A DNA stretch of 64,000 bases from Eledone cirrhosa (lineage: Eukaryota). The notes beneath the pieces were generated by a model. It was not told the origin of the DNA, searched no databases, and was given only the letters and a program-made list of their open reading frames with translations. The stretch covers positions 240,250,001-240,314,000 of the forward strand of contig OZ024741.1 in assembly GCA_964016885.1 (NCBI GenBank), read 5' to 3'. The position numbers and the translations under genes are program-made. Numbering within the stretch: the first letter of the stretch is position 1; every line of letters begins with the position of its first letter. Below are positions 36,035 to 55,149 of the stretch, in pieces.

Positions 36035-36042
<8 letters not shown>

Positions 36043-36270
36043 TAAAATAACAGATTAAAGTTTAAGCAAAGAATCGCTGCTTTCACCCTTAACGGGATCT
36101 TCTAAAACTCGTTTCAGAAGATCCCGTTAAGGATGGAAGCAGCGATTCTTTGCTTAAACTTTAATCTGTTATTTTAATAAATATTTGCTCTAGGGTTCTT
36201 ATATATTTGATATATATTTATCCTTATCAAGCCCTCTTTGGATTTTAGACTCCACATTTATTATTATTAT
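36035..36270 (+). mobile_element. PLE-like unit with 5' fold-back palindrome (variant hammerhead family)
   Basis: Inverted repeat 36035-36184; tail repeated at 36681-36770. Confidence 0.7.
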
Positions 36271-36506
36271 TATATATATATACACAGATGCATAATTAGG
36301 GCATGGCTCATGCCATGGGCACCACATGAACAAGGGGCACTTTCTATTAAAGTCAGATAAGCTATCATCGGAGAGTGATATGTATGATCTGTCTTTGATT
36401 AGTGACTGGGTCACTAAACTATTTATATAAATTATTAGGTCCTTAGTTAAAAATAGTGCTGAGCAGGGGTGTGATTTCACTGCTTGTCATATGCGCTATT
36501 TTCCCT

Positions 36507-36544
<38 letters not shown>

Positions 36545-36552
<8 letters not shown>

Positions 36553-36767
36553 TAAAATAACAGATTAAAGTTTAAGCAAAGAATCTCTGCTTTCACCCTT
36601 AACGGGATCTTCTGAAGATCCCGTTAAGGGTGAAAGCAGCGATTCTTTGCTTAAACTTTAATCTGTTATTTTAGTAAATATTTGCTCTACGGTTCTTATA
36701 TATTTGATATATATTTATCCTTATCGAGCCCTCTTTGGATTTTAGTCTCCAAATTTATTATTATTAC

Positions 36768-36810: not shown

Positions 36811-37081
36811 ATATATATTGTTTATATATATATTGTTATATATATTGTATACATATATACTGTATAATATATTGTTATATATATTGTATAATATATTGTT
36901 ATATATATTATATAATATATTGTATATATATATATTGTTATATATATTGTATATATATATATATATTGTTATATATATTGTATATATATATATATATTGT
37001 TATATATATTGTATATATATATTGAGTATATATTATTCAAAATATTAATAAATGGATACATTCACATAATCAAAATATATG

Positions 37082-37143
37082 TTTTATTATATAAATTTCG
37101 GAGGTACTGTGTTGTTTTTTCAGTACGTCCTCATCAGATAAAA
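37082..37143 (-). ncRNA. Minimal type-I hammerhead ribozyme
   Basis: Reverse complement: TTTTAT-CTGATGA-GGACGTACTG..CAGTACCTCC-GAAA-TTTATATA-ATAAAA. Confidence 0.8.
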
Positions 37144-37242
37144 TACATAAATTGATGTATGACATACCTCAACTGTGCTGATGGTTCAATTCCAGTCTTG
37201 GCAATCAGCACAGTTGAGGTATGTCATACATCAATTTATCTA

Positions 37243-37304
37243 TTTTATCTGATGAGGACCTACTGAAAAAACAACACAGTACCTCCGAAATATATATAAT
37301 AAAA
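37243..37304 (+). ncRNA. Minimal type-I hammerhead ribozyme
   Basis: TTTTAT-CTGATGA-GGACCTACTG aaaaaacaaca CAGTACCTCC-GAAA-TATATATA-ATAAAA. Confidence 0.82.
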
Positions 37305-37427
37305 CATATATTTTGAATAATATTAATAATTCCAGAAAACTTATTTGTTGAGTGCTTTTAATCTATTGTAAAACTATATTCATTGAATAATCAATGAACC
37401 TTGTTTAACATTTGGTTATATATTGAG

Positions 37428-41968: not shown

Positions 41969-43266
41969 CCAATCAGTTGGCACATGTCATATTACAGGCT
42001 CCTACATTTGCTGGTTGGCTAAATCTCCTAATGAATACAATGCTACTAGCTGCTCATTTAGCATCACTGAATGTTCTATTGAAACAGATTGGAGTCAATA
42101 TAATCGACTTTATCCTCCCCTCAAATTGTAGGCCTTGTGCCTAAATTAGAAACTATTATGACACTATGGTTTTTTATGTGTTTTTAATGAATCTAACCAT
42201 CACAACCTTTGGAAATTATTACTTTTTAGCACCCCCTTTCAGTTATCAGTTAGGGATTACTTGGTGGGAATCTGGTGTTTTCAGGTTGGGGAATTACAGA
42301 AAATGAATAATTTCTGACAGTTTTGGCAGTCAGATTCATTCAAAAATCATAACAAAAACATAAATTTCACCCCCAAGGTGAGACCATTGTAATGATAAAA
42401 AATTATCAACAGATCTACTACAAACATATCTAATGAAATATTTGTCAGTGTCTTATGAATCCAGTCTGCTAGATATATCACTTGCTAGATAGTCTTGTCT
42501 GGAACTATGTTGTAGATATATCTCACAAGCTATGGCTACATGTGTGCAGAGTCGTCAGGCAGTCAGAGCATCATTTTAGCATGCTGTTACTGTGCCAGTT
42601 GCCCCTTACACCATGCTGCTTTCAATGAGATCACAAAGCATAGCTTAAATGCCACAGGTTTTCCTTCTGAACTCAAACCAGCAGGGTTGGACCAAGGGAG
42701 TCGCAAAAGGCCAGGCAGCATAACAATTTTACCGTTCTCTGGTGGTAAGCCCCTCATCTGGAATGCTACATGTTGTGACTCCTCCAGTGGCAATCTGGTG
42801 TATTTGGTGACTAACCCTGGCAATGCTGCTCTTCAGGCTGAAGTGGGCAAACTGTTGAAATATCGGTCACTCTTCTATAGTTTTGTGGTCAAACCTGCAG
42901 TGGAAATTTCCAGTGTTCTTGGTACCCCAAATCACATTTCTACTGACACCTATCAGGGCAGAGATGGTTAACCATAGAAGCAAGCTCTCTAAGTTGTGTG
43001 GGTATGGTGTGGTGTGCGGTGGTCGGAAGCTGGGGAGTGCTCGACCGGAAGAGTGCTTGACCGGAAAGGTGCTTGGCTGGAAGGGTGCTCGACCGGAAGG
43101 GCCAGCAGATCGTTCTCTTTCTAGTGGTGACCAGGAACGGTGTGGTCGAGAGTTTGGCAGCTCCCGGGTGTTAATGAGTTGGACGCACATGGAAGAGGAG
43201 AAACCAGCCTTGGGATTTAGCGGCACCTCTGAAAAGTGGTAAGTGAGATAGCTTTTTCTAACCACA

Positions 43267-43278
43267 AGCTATTTCGGC
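43267..43278 (+). promoter_or_regulatory. Putative non-canonical PBS complementary to the 5' end of tRNA-Phe
   Basis: AGCTATTTCGGC directly abuts the LTR; its reverse complement GCCGAAATAGCT equals nt 1-12 of metazoan tRNA-Phe(GAA) as recalled from human and Drosophila. Confidence 0.6.
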
Positions 43279-43399
43279 ACTGGAAACTCAGATTTGATTG
43301 AAAAAAAAAAAAAAAAAAAAACTTTCTCGAAAACAAAGCTACTGGAAAAATAGAGAGGAGTCTGTTGTTTTTTTTTTATTACGTACCGCAAGACAAAAA

Positions 43400-44150
43400 A
43401 TGGATATGGCGACGAGACTACGAATGAGCGAAGTGATTAGGGCATTTACCGGTGAAGGCGATGTTGTCGCTTGGCTGCGAAAAGTCCGGCTGGTCGCAAG
43501 CTTACAGAAGATAGAAGATGTGGCTGGCCTCATGGCACTGTACCTCGAGGGGGAGACGTTGGTACTCTTCCTTGAGTTAGATGAACACAGCCAAAGGGAT
43601 GCGCAAAAGATTGAGAAGTGCATGATGGAAGCGTTCGCAGAGGGACCATTAGCCGCTTTTGCTAAGCTGGCAAGAATTAGATGGAACGGCGAACGCGTTG
43701 ACATTTTTGCAGCGGAAATACGGCGATTGGCCATGTTGGCTGGATATCAGGTGGAATGCGAATGCACGGTGCAGTTGGCGTTCATAAATGGATTTCCAGA
43801 CGACATAGCGGTGAAACTGCAGCAAGTTCCAGGTTACAAAGATATGGAGATGTGTTCACTGGTGGAACAAGCCCGTATCATAGCAGAAGATGCCAAGAAG
43901 AGTGTCGCGGCGATAGCAACTACAGAGGCTCAAGACAGCTGGCAGCGAAATGGTGAAAGGGAGGCAACCGCGGCACGTAGTCGCCCGCAAACGTTTAGAG
44001 GTCGCTGTTTTAGGTGACAGGACCCGCACATGGCGAGAGACTGTAGAGAGTCAAGGCCGGAAATAATATGCTACCCGTGTAAGCGACCAGCCCACATCGC
44101 TACTAGCTGCGACCAGGGAAACGATCCAAGGGGAACTACTGCGCCGGTAG
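43400..44150 (+). pseudogene. gag: gag with two CCHC-type knuckles (one interrupted by a stop)
   Basis: FTGEGDVVAWL..LYLEGE..AFINGFP; CFR*QDPHMARDC and CYPCKRPAHIATSC. Confidence 0.88.
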
Positions 44151-46963
44151 TTGCCCCCTTACGAGTAGAGGCGCTGCCCGTGGTGGAAGTCTTCGTGAGG
44201 GGAAAGCCACAGCGATCCCTCGTGGTAACGGGCTGTATGACGACACTGGTGACCGCGGGGGTGGCGCAGAGGTCGAGAGGGAAGAGCAGTCGACGGCAGG
44301 AAAATTGAATGCCGAGGTCGCAGACAGGTGGAGATGGCGGTACGGGGAAGGAAAATAAGGCTTTCTGCCATCGTAGTTGACAACGTGGTGGATGGGATTG
44401 GCATGGTTATGGGCATGGACGCAATTGGCCGTCTAGGAGGCGTCACAGTGAACAACGTCGGTGTGTCGTTTGGCGGCACTGCATCGGTATGCGTTGTGAG
44501 TATGTGACAGGAGAACCAGAAGTCCCACGAGGAGAAATACCCCGCTTACACTGTGCAGGACAAAGACTTCAAGGCCATGTTCGATGGGCAGCGATGGGTT
44601 GTTGAGTGGTACTGGAAGGGAGAACCACCAACACTGAAGACCAAAGTGGGCTGCTATCAACACACATTGAAGGGAGATATTAGGAGCGAGTTCGAGCGAG
44701 AGGTAGAAAGATAGATTGAGGAGGGCATACTGCATTCCTGGAAAGAGGAGGTGAAGTGCGGAGTATTGCCGTTAATGGCGGTGGCGCAACCCACAAAGAA
44801 CAAGGTGAGGCCAGTGCTGGACTTTCGGGAGGTGAACGAGCACGTGTCATGCCACATGGGTTGCGAGGTCACGGATGTCTGTGGGGAAACTCTAAGTGAG
44901 TGGAGAAGCATGGCGGGGGGGTTCAGCAATCGTAGATCTAAAGTCGGCATTACTTGCAATTGCATATAGATGATAAGCTCTGGTAGTATCAGCTGGTCAG
45001 GTATAAGGGCCGGACATATTGCCTGACCAGGCTCGGTTTCGGGCTGAGCTCCGCACCGAAGATCATGACGGCGCTCTCAAGACCATTCTGGGAAAGGCCG
45101 ACAAGATGAATAGGGCCACTAACTCCTACATTGACGACATCCTGGTGGATGAGTCTGTAGTGTCGGCGGCGGGGTCACGAGCAATTTACAGGGGTATGGA
45201 CTGGCTGCGAAGCCGTCAGAAGCGTTGGAGGGAGGAGCCGCGTTGGGACTTAGGCTATGGTGAGACAGGACGGGCATCTTGGTATTCCAGAGGGGAAATG
45301 AAGTTCCAGAACTGGGCTCAAGTATGAATAGGCAGGAGCTTTTCTCGGTGTGTGGAAAGTTGGTGGGTCACTACCCGATCGCTGGGTGGCTCCGGATGGC
45401 ATGCAGCTATGTCAAGAGATGAGCGGGTGGGGTGACTTGGAGTGACAGAGTGGGAGAGAGGATGGTGGCCATGATGCAGGAGATTGTGGAGAGGGTGAAA
45501 GCTGACGACCCAGTGCGGGGACGCTGGTATGTTCCCAAAGTGCAGAGCGGGACCGTATGGTGCGATGCCAGCAGCATAGCGCTGGGTGTCACGTTGGAGA
45601 TAGAAGGTGTTGAGGTCGAGGATGCAGCCTGGCTTAGGAAGAAGGACGACTGCAACCACATCGATGTGGCCGAACTGGACGCAGTGTTGAGAGGGGTGAA
45701 CCTCACCCTGATGTGGGGACTGCGCACCATCGATATACGCACCGACTCGGCTACTGTACTCGGATGGGTGAGATTAGTGCTCACCAGTGAGAAGAGAGTG
45801 CAAATGAGAGGGGCGGCGGAGATGCTGATAAAGCGCTACCTGGGAACTTTAGGAGAGCTGGCCACCGAGTTCGACCTGAGGCTGAGCGTAGTTTTCGTGC
45901 CCTCAGAGAAAAATAGGGCGGACATCTTAACCAGGGTGAAGAAATCCTGTATGGAAGCGCCGGAGGGACTAGAAGATGAGATAGCTGCCGTGTGTCGGCT
46001 GACTGAGTTGGATCTGAAAGGGTTGCATGATATGCACCACATGGGAGTGGATAGGACCCTGTTCCTAGCCAGGAGAATCGACTCGGATGTTAACAGACAC
46101 AGTGTTCAAAGGGTGGTTAGAGGCTGCGTCCAATGTCAGTCCATTGATACCGCCCCGCATGTGCACGAAACGGGAGGCCTCCCGGTGGATCGCGACTGGA
46201 AGCGATTGGCGGTGGATGTAACGCACTACCAACAGGGAACGTACCTCTCGATGGTCAACTGTGGACCAGGACGGATGGCGATATGGAGGGAGATGAAGAC
46301 TGGAACGGCCGAGGAAATCATGCGGACGTTGAGAGAGGTGTTCTTGGAGCGGGGCCCTGTGGACGACTGCTGATGGACAACAGCGCAATGTTCTGCTCGG
46401 AGGCATTGAGGGAGATGCTCGATGGATGGAAGGTGGACTGTTTCTCCAGAGCAGTGCACAGGCTTAGCGGGAATGGAATTGTTGAGCAACACCACCGGAC
46501 GATCAAAGCAATGGCAGAGCGGGGCCATATCTCACCAATGGAGGCAGTGTTCTGGTACAACATGTCCCCTCGGGTGGGACAGGTTGAGGAATCGGTGCCA
46601 CACAGAGCAGTATTCAGATACGAGTGGTGGCACCCATGCACGCCACCACAACGGCCAGTGGGGAGAGAGAATGCATTCGTGCAGGTGGGTGAAGAAGTCT
46701 GGGTTAAGCCCCCAGATGCACGTTGCACATCTCAATGGGGAAGGGGAACGGTGACGGCCGTAAATTCCCAGAACAATGTGTCCGTGGACGGAGTACCGCG
46801 TCATGTCCTGGATGACCGTAGAATCACTGTGTCAACGGACTCCGAGGAAGAGGAAACTCAAAGTGCCGCCCCAACACTGCGGAGATCGCAAAGATGTCGC
46901 AAACCACCAACCTGGACAGCAGACTTTCATATGCAGAAGGAGGAGGAGGAAATTGATCCTTGA
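44150..46963 (+). pseudogene. pol: pol (PR-RT-RH-IN), disrupted
   Basis: LVVTG (decayed DTG), VRPVLDFREVN, YIDD, CDASS, TDS, HH..CC, DVTHY, MDNS, NGIVE. Confidence 0.93.
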
Positions 46964-49439
46964 GATCAGGGGGGGGGCATGTGGGTATGGTGTGGTGTGC
47001 GGTGGCCGGAAGCTGGGGAGTGCTCGACCGGAAGAGTGCTTGGCCGGAAGGGTGCTTGGCAGGAAGGGTGCTCGACCGGAAGGGCCAGCAGGTCGCTCTC
47101 TTTCTAGTGGTGACCAGGAACGGTGTGGACGCGGGTTTGGCAGCTCCTGGGTGTTAATGAGTTGGACGCACGTGGAAGAGGAGAAACCAGCCTTGGGATT
47201 TAGCGGCACCTGTAAAAAGCGGTAAGTGAGATAGCTTTTTCTAACCACAAGTTGGATTGGCTATTTCAACGTATCTCCCTTGCTATGCTCTGGGGCAATA
47301 TTTCCTCCAATTTGTCTGCTGGGACCACAAGGCAGGCTAAACAGGGGCTCCCCCACACTAAAGAATGCTCCTCGACTCTGGTCTGGGCCCACATCTCTAG
47401 AATAGCAATGCTTAATTGTACTGTCACCTAATGTTTCCTCTTCATACTTAGCTGTGAAGTGGTTTTATGCATAACCTTTTTAAGATTAGAGGGGATAAAA
47501 TGGTACTTGATGTCTGAAGAGATAGTGTTTATCTAGGACAGAACACATCATAATGTTCTTCATCATTGGTTTTACATTTGGTTCTCCATGCTGGCACACT
47601 TTTTGAAATAAATTTAGATAAGTTTTGTTCACAATATGAATGAAATTAAAAAATAGCAATTTAAATATCAGGCTACTTGTTATCTAGCACATGTTTTATT
47701 GTAAGCAGATTTCTCAGATCTCAATTATATTTCACAACCAAAGTTTCATAGAAAAAGGGTCAGGTTTAACTTAATTTTACGATCTCACAACACAAAGTTT
47801 GGAAACTTCTGTTCTAGGACCAGAGTGATAAAGGATGAATAAGAACATTTATGTAATACATTTAGTATTTTAAAGGTATATATGAACATATGAGAGACGT
47901 TCTCTAAGTCTGATACATGTAACTTATATATTTGAAGAGGGTTGTGAGTAGCACATTAGGTAAAGTAACACATTTCCAAGGTGGATTTTGGTTATCTTTC
48001 TGGCATTGATATAATTTGCTATGCCTCTGTAGTGGAACTATGTCACACCTCTCAATAGCAACATTTTCATATGCAATAAGATCAAACTGACCAATGGGAA
48101 GTTGCGTATGAATACATGGTCAATCTCACTCTCGCTCTCTGGTAAAAAACCTCAGACAACACTCGAGACACTAGACAGACGAACAGACAGAGCTGACCAA
48201 TAGATGATACGGATGCATGAAGAATTATTATAAAATGACTCCTACATTCCTTTCGACAAATAAAATTATATTTATAGAGGATTGTGCGTTAAAGAGATAT
48301 TTATTTATATCCTGGAAGTCAGAAGCATTTACTACCAATGAGAAGCTACCAACTCTTCGATTAAGGTATTTCACTTATATCGCTTATAAACAACAAGATC
48401 CTTCGAAGACTGATAATATGCAATTATAAAAAGATATAGATAAAATTTAACTCCTCATCCTATCTATACCTCCTATGTATATATATCACTATTTTATATC
48501 TATTTTTCATGAGTGCCTGGTTTAAATGGGATGTCATGTTCTGAGGCCAGACATGTCAGAAGATTGTCTTGCTCAAATGTTTCATTTTGGCATGATTTCT
48601 ATGATGATTGGATGCCTTTCCTAATGCCAACCATTTCATAGCATGTACTCAATGTGTCTTATCATGGTACTACCACCTGTCAGGGTGGACTGGGTGCTTC
48701 TTTTGATGGTACAACCTACCATTGCACATTGTTGGCTGAGTTCATTTTATTGTGGTACCAGCATTATCATTTTTTACATAACGGTACTTGTGTCCTGAGC
48801 CAGGCTGGAGAAGGAGGGATAGGTTCAGGCATGAGTGAGGGCCTCCATGTTACTTTCCAAGGGAGCAGGTGAGAGGGAAAGGTGGCCTTAAAAGTGATAT
48901 CTGGTTGTGTATTGTGTGGATGACTATATATATAATGTATATACATGTTTTTGGTTTATCACTGTCACTCAGTGGCAGAACAACAGCAGGCAGGAAAGAG
49001 AGAGAGAAAGTGCAGAAAAATCTCCAGAGTAAACCAGCACAATACATCAATTTCGGATTCTAATTTCCATTGGTCATCAGAAATTGCTTTAATTTTCTAT
49101 TGTTTCTGAAATGTAAAGCCCAAGAAAATATCAATAGCTATGAAATATGTTCAAATTTTGTGAAACCAATATTTATAAAAATGATATATATTATATGATA
49201 AAGCAATCAAATAAAACAATAATTTGGTATCACTGTCAAAGGGAGAGGAATGAATGAATGACATGTGAGATTGCTTGAGTGTTACTGGTAATATGGATGG
49301 ATGGTCCCGTAACTCCAGGGGGAGTTATTAGGGTGCTATATTGACATACAGGGTTTCTAGGGCATTTTTAAAACCTGGTGGAGTCCATCCCTCTCCAGGT
49401 CTGAATATAGCAGATTTCTTCCAGAGAAGGATAAAGAGG

Positions 49440-52739: not shown

Positions 52740-53425
52740 TCTACAATGTGTTCATAGGGCACTCAATGAATACACTGTAGCGAAGCTGGAGGATGTTGGC
52801 AGAGTGATGAACACTATGGAGGGGACGTAAGAGGATGTAGGAAAATTGAGGAATACTGTGTAGGGGCATAGGAGGACGTAGGCAAATTGGTGAACACTGT
52901 GTAGGAAACATTGGAGGATGTAGGAAAATTGATGAATGCTGTGAAGGGGACATGGGAGGAAAAAGGTAAAGTAATGAATGAGAATAGGGGACATTGGAGG
53001 ACAAAGGTAAAGTGATGAATGCTGTGACCACGTTGGAGGATGTAGGCCAAATAATAGATTTTTACTGCCTCATTGGGAGAGGAAAGTCATAACTCAACAC
53101 AATATGACATTTTACAGGTCATAGACCCCTTAATAATTCTTCTGTGATCATACTCGGGAAATTATGTTACTTAATGTGCTACACGAGGAAATGTAAAGAA
53201 TTAATGAACATTGTGTCTATGCTAAGAGTTGTTGGCCATATAATGAATCGTCTATGTTCATACTGAGGGCTGTAGGAATCTATTATAGCTGCACTGGGAG
53301 ATGCATGTCAATTAATGTGCATTTTATATCCATGCTAGATGTACGCCAATTAATGATTCCTCTGAGATCATGCTGATGTTATACTCTATGGTGAAGGGTA
53401 TAGGCCATTTAACAAACCCTCTACA
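52740..53425 (+). repeat. Old degenerate about 43-45 bp tandem repeats
   Basis: Recurring GGAGGATGTAGG.AAATTGATGAA..CTGTG. Confidence 0.75.
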
Positions 53426-53426
53426 G

Positions 53427-54465
53427 GCATGCTGAGGGACATTTGTCAATCAACAAACCTGTTATGGCCATGCTGAGTGAAGGACATTTGTCTATCAACA
53501 AACCCGTTATGGCCATGCTGAGTGAAGGACATTTGTCTATCAACAAACCCGTTATGGCCACGCTGAGTGAAGGACATTTGTCTATCAACAAACCCGTTAT
53601 GGCCACGCTGAGTGAAGGACATTTGTCTATCAACAAACCCGTTATGGCCACGCTGAGTGAAGGACATTTGTCTATCAACAAACCCGTTATGGCCACGCTG
53701 AGTGAAGGACATTTGTCTATCAACAAACCCGTTATGGCCATGCTGAGTGAAGGACATTTGTCTATCAACAAACCCGTTATGGCCATGCTGAGTGAAGGAC
53801 ATTTGTCTATCAACAAACCCGTTATGGCCACGCTGAGTGAAGGACATTTGTCTATCAACAAACCCGTTATGGCCACGCTGAGTGAAGGACATTTGTCTAT
53901 CAACAAACCCGTTATGGCCATGCTGAGTGAAGGACATTTGTCTATCAACAAACCCGTTATGGCCATGCTGAGTGAAGGACATTTGTCTATCAACAAACCC
54001 GTTATGGCCACGCTGAGTGAAGGACATTTGTCTATCAACAAACCCGTTATGGCCACGCTGAGTGAAGGACATTTGTCTATCAACAAACCCGTTATGGCCA
54101 TGCTGAGTGAAGGACATTTGTCTATCAACAAACCCGTTATGGCCATGCTGAGTGAAGGACATTTGTCTATCAACAAACCCGTTATGGCCATGCTGAGTGA
54201 AGGACATTTGTCTATCAACAAACCCGTTATGGCCATGCTGAGTGAAGGACATTTGTCTATCAACAAACCTGTTATGGCCATGCTGAGTGAAGGACATTTG
54301 TCTATCAACAAACCTGTTATGGCCATGCTGAGTGAAGGACATTTGTCTATCAACAAACCCGTTATGGCCATGCTGAGTGAAGGACATTTGTCTATCAACA
54401 AACCTGTTATGGCCATGCTGAGTGAAGGACATTTGTCTATCAACAAACCCGTTATGGCCATGCTA
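53427..54465. repeat. Homogeneous 45-bp minisatellite, about 23 copies
   Basis: Unit A(T/C)GCTGAGTGAAGGACATTTGTCTATCAACAAACC(C/T)GTTATGGCC. Confidence 0.98.
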
Positions 54466-55149
54466 GAAGATGTAAGTCACTTTATGAATGGTCATACAAA
54501 CTGATTTGGGCCATTTAATGTACCTTCTACGCCATGCTGTATAATGTACATCGTTTAAAAAACATCAATGATCACACCATTGGATGTATACAAACCAATG
54601 AATACTGTACAATGATGTCAGGAAAAATAAACCAATTAATGAGGACCCTAGTGCTAAGCTGAGTGATCTATGCCACTTAAGGACTCTCTAATGCACACTG
54701 TTTGTTTGCATATCACCGAATTATCCTTCTGAAGGTTATAATGAGGTCATAGACCACCCTTCTCATCTTGGACTACATTAGCATATCCTTGTTTTTAAAT
54801 GCTACAGTAGCATTTAAAGAAGGTTTGGCCTTTTTTAGCTGTTAGACCCACCCACAGCGCATATTTTCCATTATTAGCTCATGACTCCATTTGCAGATTT
54901 TCCCATGTTAGCTCATGACTCACCTTGCAAATTTTCCCTCTATTAGTTCATGTTGAATGCATGTGTTTTTTGTGTTGCAGAATGTAAGTGGATACCAACA
55001 TCTTTTTATTTACTTTTTAGCATTGTTTATGTGGACATTTTAGTTTCTTCTAAGTAGCAGATCAATTTTCAGCTGGGTACAATCCAATATCACCTTGTTT
55101 ATGATTTTAGCAACAATAAAAGAGATTCTTATTCTCCTGTAGTTTCCCT

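Follow-up and report, generated by a model that had tools for sequence, protein, structure and literature searches.

Complementarity of a retrotransposon primer site to the 5' end of tRNA-Phe in Eledone cirrhosa suggests a 12-nucleotide register of tRNA-fragment priming

Known priming systems

Three primer types are distinguished in the available part of PMC6317226, namely a whole tRNA, a half tRNA that is released by a cut in the anticodon stem, and a self-primer. In plants, half-tRNA priming is described there as confined to Ty1/Copia elements, and section 3.6 of PMC10886601 adds anticodon-loop priming with further tRNAs in rust-fungal Copia elements. These half-tRNA systems (copia, Ty5, Osser/Bryco/Gymco-II/Bianca and rust-fungal Copia) resemble the element analysed in our study in that the primer would be the 5' portion of a host tRNA whose 3'-OH arises by cleavage. 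As far as the same two sources describe them, however, their site is complementary to the anticodon arm, in whose stem the tRNA is cut, whereas the match found here covers tRNA nt 1-12 and not the anticodon arm, so that the whole primer would be paired and the predicted cut falls in the D-stem. The present lineage, moreover, matches Phe, Met and Lys tRNAs and has the gene order protease, reverse transcriptase (RT), RNase H and integrase.

A very short primer site at the LTR edge is shared with Tf1, and so would be the proposed cut at the edge of the duplex; the comparison covers Tf1, Tf2, Tj1 and the Tf1/sushi group (PMC4600332, as far as available). These elements pair with their own transcript, whereas our lineage pairs with the start of a host tRNA and lacks a corresponding LTR complement in the 23 LTRs that we scored. 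Canonical priming from the 3'-CCA end in Ty3/Gypsy elements and retroviruses, including the tRNA-Phe-primed IAP (PMC7472051, in the part available), likewise uses a host tRNA directly past the 5' LTR and includes switches of the primer. In contrast to it, the site described here lacks TGG, faces the opposite end of the tRNA and is a sense copy of the strand that a normal primer binding site (PBS) would bind.

The first-pass annotation of this DNA had judged the priming mode to be non-standard. The literature that we searched describes priming by tRNA 3' ends, half tRNAs and self-primers only, and a PBS matching tRNA nt 1-12 was not among them; Repbase and most subscription journals lay outside this search and a prior note is possible. 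Papers citing the site or DUF7047 included none on retrotransposon priming, judged by their titles and the beginnings of their abstracts. Priming by a spliced-leader RNA, said to occur in Tor elements of Oikopleura, was considered as well; it is not confirmed in the available parts of PMC4402516 and PMC4122922 and was not used. The lineage points to a fourth primer register beside the types of PMC6317226, combining features of the half-tRNA and the self-primer, and our sequence comparisons suggest a new form of tRNA-fragment priming in a 12-nt 5'-end register.

The element and its primer site

The window, i.e. the whole stretch of 64,000 nucleotides that was analysed (E. cirrhosa assembly GCA_964016885.1, contig OZ024741.1), carries on its plus strand an LTR element of 4.25 kb (42997-47249). 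It has direct LTRs with TG...CA ends, a target site duplication, a polypurine tract, gag and pol, as expected for an LTR retrotransposon. The 5' LTR (42997-43266, TGT...ACA) and the 3' LTR (46980-47249) measure 270 bp each and differ at 14 positions. The end of the 5' LTR had been placed at 43266 in the first-pass annotation, together with a 5-bp duplication AGTTG. The matching 3' LTR and both copies of AGTTG (42992-42996 and 47250-47254) agree with this, and reads and contigs aligned to the LTR stop just past 43266 (10 contigs in one dataset and 208 reads in another), which confirms the LTR end. Sequencing runs from two other organisms gave no coverage of the site. The gag frame (43400-44017), supported by family matches, is closed by a stop within the CCHC zinc-knuckle region. 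A predicted -1 frameshift site, GGGAAAC, lies in the gag/pol overlap (44116-44122), and at its place the pol frames of many relatives open with GKR in the alignment. The pol remnants (44120-46963), identified from translations, protein matches, Pfam and the alignment of relatives, follow in the order protease, RT, DUF7047, RNase H and DDE integrase and are split over several frames. With a stop ending gag and several frames carrying pol, the window copy is dead. Elsewhere in the window we observed a minisatellite with a 45-bp unit in about 23 copies and several open frames (53298-54587), as well as near-perfect inverted repeats with 68-116 nt per arm in AT-rich DNA (36035-36681 and 37067-37319), which are duplicated about 500 bp apart and are possibly MITE- or foldback-like.

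The order of the pol domains, seen in both alignment and Pfam, is that of Ty3/Gypsy elements. In a model of the relative P0148 (pLDDT 92.7) a single RNase H follows straight after the RT thumb, without the retroviral connection domain and second RNase H. Folds matching this model are retroviral, foamy and caulimovirus RTs at 10-23% identity, and among the PDB matches listed the top query TM-score was 0.57 for the caulimovirus RT 8r0s. Sequence matches in the PDB were weak and mixed, with retroviral RTs at E values of about 1e-4, MMTV integrase and Ty3 Gag-Pol, and the RT of the element scores under the Pfam RVT_1 cut-off. By these comparisons the element is Gypsy-like in its gene order, for which the initial label Gypsy was right, and its RT is very divergent (lineage Pfam DUF7047). 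We take the RNase H motifs DAS and HINxxEL and the thumb to resemble those of DIRS-type elements, yet the integrase of the element is of the DDE type and its LTRs are normal. Ty3/Gypsy clades of molluscs and annelids (MolGy1-16 and PolGy1-4; PMC6238403 and PMC8556966, as far as available) share host phyla and gene order with our lineage, which could be one of them; the main texts of these two papers mention PBS or tRNA 0 times.

Directly behind the 5' LTR, with zero gap, lies AGCTATTTCGGC (43267-43278), the exact complement of nt 1-12 of tRNA-Phe(GAA). The absence of a TGG at the expected place, noted in the first-pass annotation, holds, as the first TGG downstream of the 5' LTR is at 43282, and a canonical site with TGG 0-5 nt from the LTR that pairs with a tRNA 3' end was not found. 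The annotation had further assumed that metazoan tRNA-Phe(GAA) starts with the reverse complement of these 12 nt. The host genes bear this out: tRNA-Phe(GAA) genes open with GCCGAAAUAGCUCAG, for which the host genome gives 247 pattern matches, and ARAGORN and Rfam both put the gene start at its initial G. Within the whole element the 12-mer at the PBS is the longest complement to any part of tRNA-Phe, the next best being 8 nt. With about 50 tRNA types to choose from, the probability that any one 12-mer complements a tRNA 5' start by chance is about 3e-6.

Besides, the host genome holds 527 CAAGCTATTTCGGC junctions as compared with 1 for the reversed control. We collected 30 host copies through gag alone and not through the site; the LTR end is seen in 28 of them, of which 21 retain the site unchanged, 6 carry a single mismatch and 1 a deletion. 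Aligning the junctions across copies, as had been recommended at the outset, therefore revealed a retained site. The match had been said to stop exactly at tRNA position 1, and conservation indeed ends at base 12, while base 13 varies in the host; it is other than A in 186 host junctions and splits the window family into subfamilies. Among 30 such non-A junctions, 5 (L359, L360, L364, L365 and L374) have other LTR ends and no U5 AGATAGCT arm, and a gag of the clade lies downstream of the site in L359, L360 and L374. Taken together, three host groups besides the window family, whose LTR ends are unrelated to its own or only distantly similar, retain the identical 12-mer. C-type variants of the site gave 11 matches in the host genome, comprising 1 mutated family copy and 10 sequences without likeness to the element. 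A search for LTR-LTR junctions retaining primer bases gave 3 matches, none of which aligned to the element by blastn, and these were dismissed as chance.

We also observed large tandem tRNA arrays in the host genome (C4:117.36-117.54 Mb, C2:99.02-99.11 Mb, C2:102.03-102.07 Mb and C1:365.60-365.62 Mb). They hold Phe together with Asn in a 1.26-kb period, Lys-like starts, Met(CAU) and Thr(CGU), and the host Met and Lys(UUU) tRNA genes that were inspected contain introns.

Conservation of the site and its variants among relatives

We retrieved relatives by scanning metagenome contigs for an RNase H motif and not for the site, which yielded 77 loci with 28-59% identity. Apart from 34 loci without a gag start and 2 without upstream DNA, 41 loci with 43 gag starts remained. 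The motif AGCT[AG][CT]NNNGGC precedes 37 of these 43 starts, and it matches 44 times on the plus strand versus 3 times on the minus strand. The six misses are L073, where the site lies outside the 220-nt search window, L102, whose contig starts at the site, L125, whose site is one base longer, L134, which is of the Met type, and L145/L147 with CGCTATCTGTGC. In L082, L097, L098 and L101 a second LTR copy sets the boundary, and the site is flush with it in each. The LTRs of the metagenome relatives are unrelated while the site is constant; in 38 clusters defined by LTR end only the terminal ACA is strongly conserved upstream of it. Information content in these clusters is 1.5-2 bits at columns 10-12 and declines to 0.39 at column 13, staying under 0.4 from there on; the plateau is one that arises partly by construction because the junctions were chosen by the motif. 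In the corresponding profile for gag starts, 24 of 25 gag ORFs come from loci already known to bear the motif.

The last LTR base is A in all 38 clusters and cannot pair with C13 of the tRNA; the duplex therefore stops at the LTR edge. Column 13 is T in only 5 of the 38 clusters, so that the site does not pair with the A at position -1 of the pre-tRNA that is found in four host genes.

One search returned 469 related proteins. Cephalopods, crustaceans, a gastropod and a bryozoan are among the named hosts of related proteins in our searches as a whole, with octopod proteins as the closest named matches to the window element. A barnacle relative queried against the host genome gave matches at 44-46% identity, several of them at places of the window family, and none was added to the set of loci. 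The Atlas search returned unnamed clusters and RT clusters only, and no relative of the element was found in viral contigs. Binding of the tRNA 5' end thus appears, from sequence, to be real, clade-wide and well supported, and the site would mark a whole abundant clade with more than 500 junctions in the host genome alone. PBS finders that seek TGG may overlook this clade.

The site occurs in several types. In a table of 38 families, which includes L134 and leaves out L079 (contig end, gag not seen), we counted 13 TTC, 10 CTA, 5 CGC, 2 CCC and 2 AGCTACCTCGGC, with CAC, TAC, the L136 type, the L134 type, L125 and L145 represented by a single family each. Most of the variation falls in columns 6-9, opposite nt 7-4 of the acceptor stem. 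The sites of 31 of the 38 families match nt 1-12 of a tRNA gene found in this analysis; a matching start was absent for seven (CCC twice, AGCTACCTCGGC twice, TAC, L125 and L145) in a tRNA scan that spanned 31 of 64 parts. The L134 site, CGCTACCGAGGC, is the complement of the tRNA-Met(CAU) start in the host genome of the window element and also of a Met row in the available supplement of PMC9023262. It differs from the Phe type by five changes, one of them at the first base, opposite tRNA nt 12, and all of them are as in tRNA-Met. The L136 site is the complement of the tRNA-Lys(UUU) start in the same supplement, with the Lys gene of the window host being one base off. The LTR ends of L134 and L136 are defined by ACA and the distance to gag and not by a second LTR. 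The register is identical for the Phe, Met and Lys switches (nt 1-12), and all tRNAs used have a GCC start and UAGC at nt 8-11.

A scan for tRNA-Phe(GAA) with a D-loop of eukaryote or archaea type returned 128 loci that show 20 distinct starts. These starts include those complementing CTA (L202), CGC (L215) and CAC (L247 and L253), and the chance of covering three of six variants is about 0.002-0.05, depending on the starts counted. Covariation of element and tRNA within one organism was seen in the window host genome only, the matching tRNAs of the other variants coming from separate records that differ from the record of the element. In the 12 records with variant tRNAs we found no element of the clade, with weak matches in the integrase region and motif matches at control level. 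Animal-like tRNA-Phe genes, some of them in tandem, occur in records labelled bacterial (L213, L215, L239, L257, L258 and L312), which is probably eukaryotic contamination.

A tree of 37 RNase H-region segments, calculated by a quick method without L145 and with a weak backbone, requires 13 changes for 10 site types. The ten CTA families form one clade in it and are therefore counted once. Loci with a common contig prefix often have the same variant even when they fall on different branches of this tree, whose support is too weak to tell effects of the host from those of the lineage. A well-supported subclade of L091, L094, L123, L134 and L136 has four site types and contains both switches away from Phe.

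Proposed priming mechanism and alternatives

The 3' end of a primer has to lie beside the LTR end. As the duplex with nt 1-12 ends at the LTR edge, the primer most likely consists of tRNA nt 1-12 and is cut in the D-stem. We put the probability that minus-strand DNA is primed by such a 12-nt 5' piece at roughly 0.8. In the proposed sequence of events the nucleocapsid of Gag would melt the acceptor stem together with the 5' side of the D-stem and hybridize nt 1-12 of the tRNA to the site (predicted -18.7 kcal/mol). The unpaired remainder of the tRNA would then be cut off at the duplex edge between nt 12 and 13, which would provide the 3'-OH, with the Tf1 RNase H as a model. The Tf1 self-primer measures 11 nt. 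Going by the title of a 1996 paper by Levin that PMC4600332 cites, the Tf1 RNase H is reported to cleave an RNA duplex. Extension by the RT from nt 12 into the terminal CA would give a flush end at the 5' LTR, matching the polypurine tract that abuts TG at the other LTR.

Which enzyme would make the cut is, given priming by a 5' piece, an about even choice between the RNase H of the element and a host nuclease. The catalytic RNase H motifs DAS, HINxxEL, TDS and NxAD are conserved in the alignment of relatives, and intact motifs make the RNase H a candidate for primer release. We tentatively propose, at a little under even odds, that an unnamed deep lineage of 4-kb LTR elements, found across invertebrate phyla and characterized by a DUF7047 RT, unwinds a host tRNA starting at its 5' end and cuts it with its own RNase H after nt 12, so that a fully paired 12-nt primer results. 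If this is true, the element itself makes 5' tRNA fragments and cuts tRNA-Phe, -Lys or -Met. Alternatively, a host nuclease could supply the primer: a 5' tRNA fragment, released by cleavage in the D-loop, would anneal to the site and be trimmed to nt 12 without the RNase H of the element. D-loop-cut 5' tRNA fragments are about 14-16 nt long. Such an origin requires no new enzyme activity, and the GCC start and the UAGC common to all tRNAs used would suit a common host processing route; the single register for three tRNA types, set by the LTR edge, suggests a duplex-guided cut instead. Host cleavage is a substantial possibility in our view, clearly short of an even chance.

The remaining explanations do without a 5' tRNA piece as primer. 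The 12-mer might merely tether or package an intact tRNA, the 3'-OH being provided by the CCA end of this tRNA, by another RNA or by a protein. A tRNA opened at its 5' end yields no 3'-OH by itself, and bipartite tRNA binding is known from yeast elements through the extra tRNA contacts of Ty1 and Ty3. We consider this unlikely, as the site fills the bases adjoining the LTR end, where the 3' end of the primer must sit, and as the 3' end of tRNA-Phe (TGG plus 8 nt) has no complementary stretch in either the window element or the 77 related loci. Self-priming as in Tf1, with the transcript end, the U5 arm AGATAGCT or a spliced LTR junction pairing with the site and the tRNA match being incidental, had been offered as an alternative in the first-pass annotation. 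Its U5 pairing is real in the window family as a predicted stem: the arm (43246-43254) would pair with the site over 10 nt including G-U pairs, with -13.0 kcal/mol for 43230-43290, and a donor-like GGTAAGT is present inside the LTR. The arm is, however, absent from other host families with the same site (L359/L360, L364, L365 and L374), and the window copy reaches the at least 10 nt of LTR complement that characterize a Tf1-type PBS only with G-U pairs in U5. From 32 loci tried, 9 without an LTR start were dropped, and in the 23 LTRs scored the longest Watson-Crick complement was 4-7 nt with duplex energies equal to those of shuffles (P at least 0.09), while GT-AG junctions gave 3-7 nt, at shuffle level in 22 of 23 LTRs. 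Moreover, the site is constant across unrelated LTRs and shifts along with the starts of tRNA-Met and tRNA-Lys. Self-priming is thereby largely refuted on the sequence evidence and very improbable. The U5 stem appears specific to the window family, where the predicted hairpin could hide site bases 1-8 and may have a regulatory role.

Finally, the motif could be a protein-binding or structural signal that resembles a tRNA by chance, and the seven families without a matching tRNA start would fit such a signal. Chance would have to produce a tRNA start at about 3e-6 per family, the variable columns 6-9 face the variable acceptor-stem positions 7-4, and the Met type changes each of its five positions as the tRNA does, so that we regard this as hardly credible. 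Three outcomes had been named beforehand as counter-evidence to pairing with the tRNA start, and all three failed to appear: the family retains the site, host tRNA-Phe starts as assumed, and the site tracks the tRNA and not the LTR. Priming by a 12-nt 5' tRNA piece would give very short 5' tRNA fragments a testable role, and it predicts that 5' and not 3' fragments could prime or silence such elements. The natural Phe, Met and Lys variants provide ready specificity controls for an in vitro assay.

Two further features adjoin the primer sites of both strands. In the window family and some others, a donor-like GTAAGT/GTGAGT lies about 20-28 nt before the LTR end, which in the window is the predicted donor GGTAAGT at 43238-43244, and a pyrimidine tract with AG is found just before the gag ATG (43238-43392 in the window). 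An intron predicted from these signals would strip the primer site from the mRNA and separate translated from genomic RNA. A similar arrangement of donor and acceptor is seen in the host loci L359 and L360 and in the tree neighbour L073, with the acceptor side only in L374; of 35 metagenome families, 34 are without the donor, and in most of these the LTR end is followed by an ATG at a distance of up to about 40 nt. At the other end of the element, a short inverted repeat (46954-46968), a predicted hairpin, borders the polypurine tract (46968-46977) on its 5' side. By energy alone, such a hairpin beats shuffles in only 8 of 36 families. Judged by eye from the folds, about 29 of the 36 have a hairpin of 5-8 bp in this position, with letters that differ between families, and it may mark the cut for the plus-strand primer.
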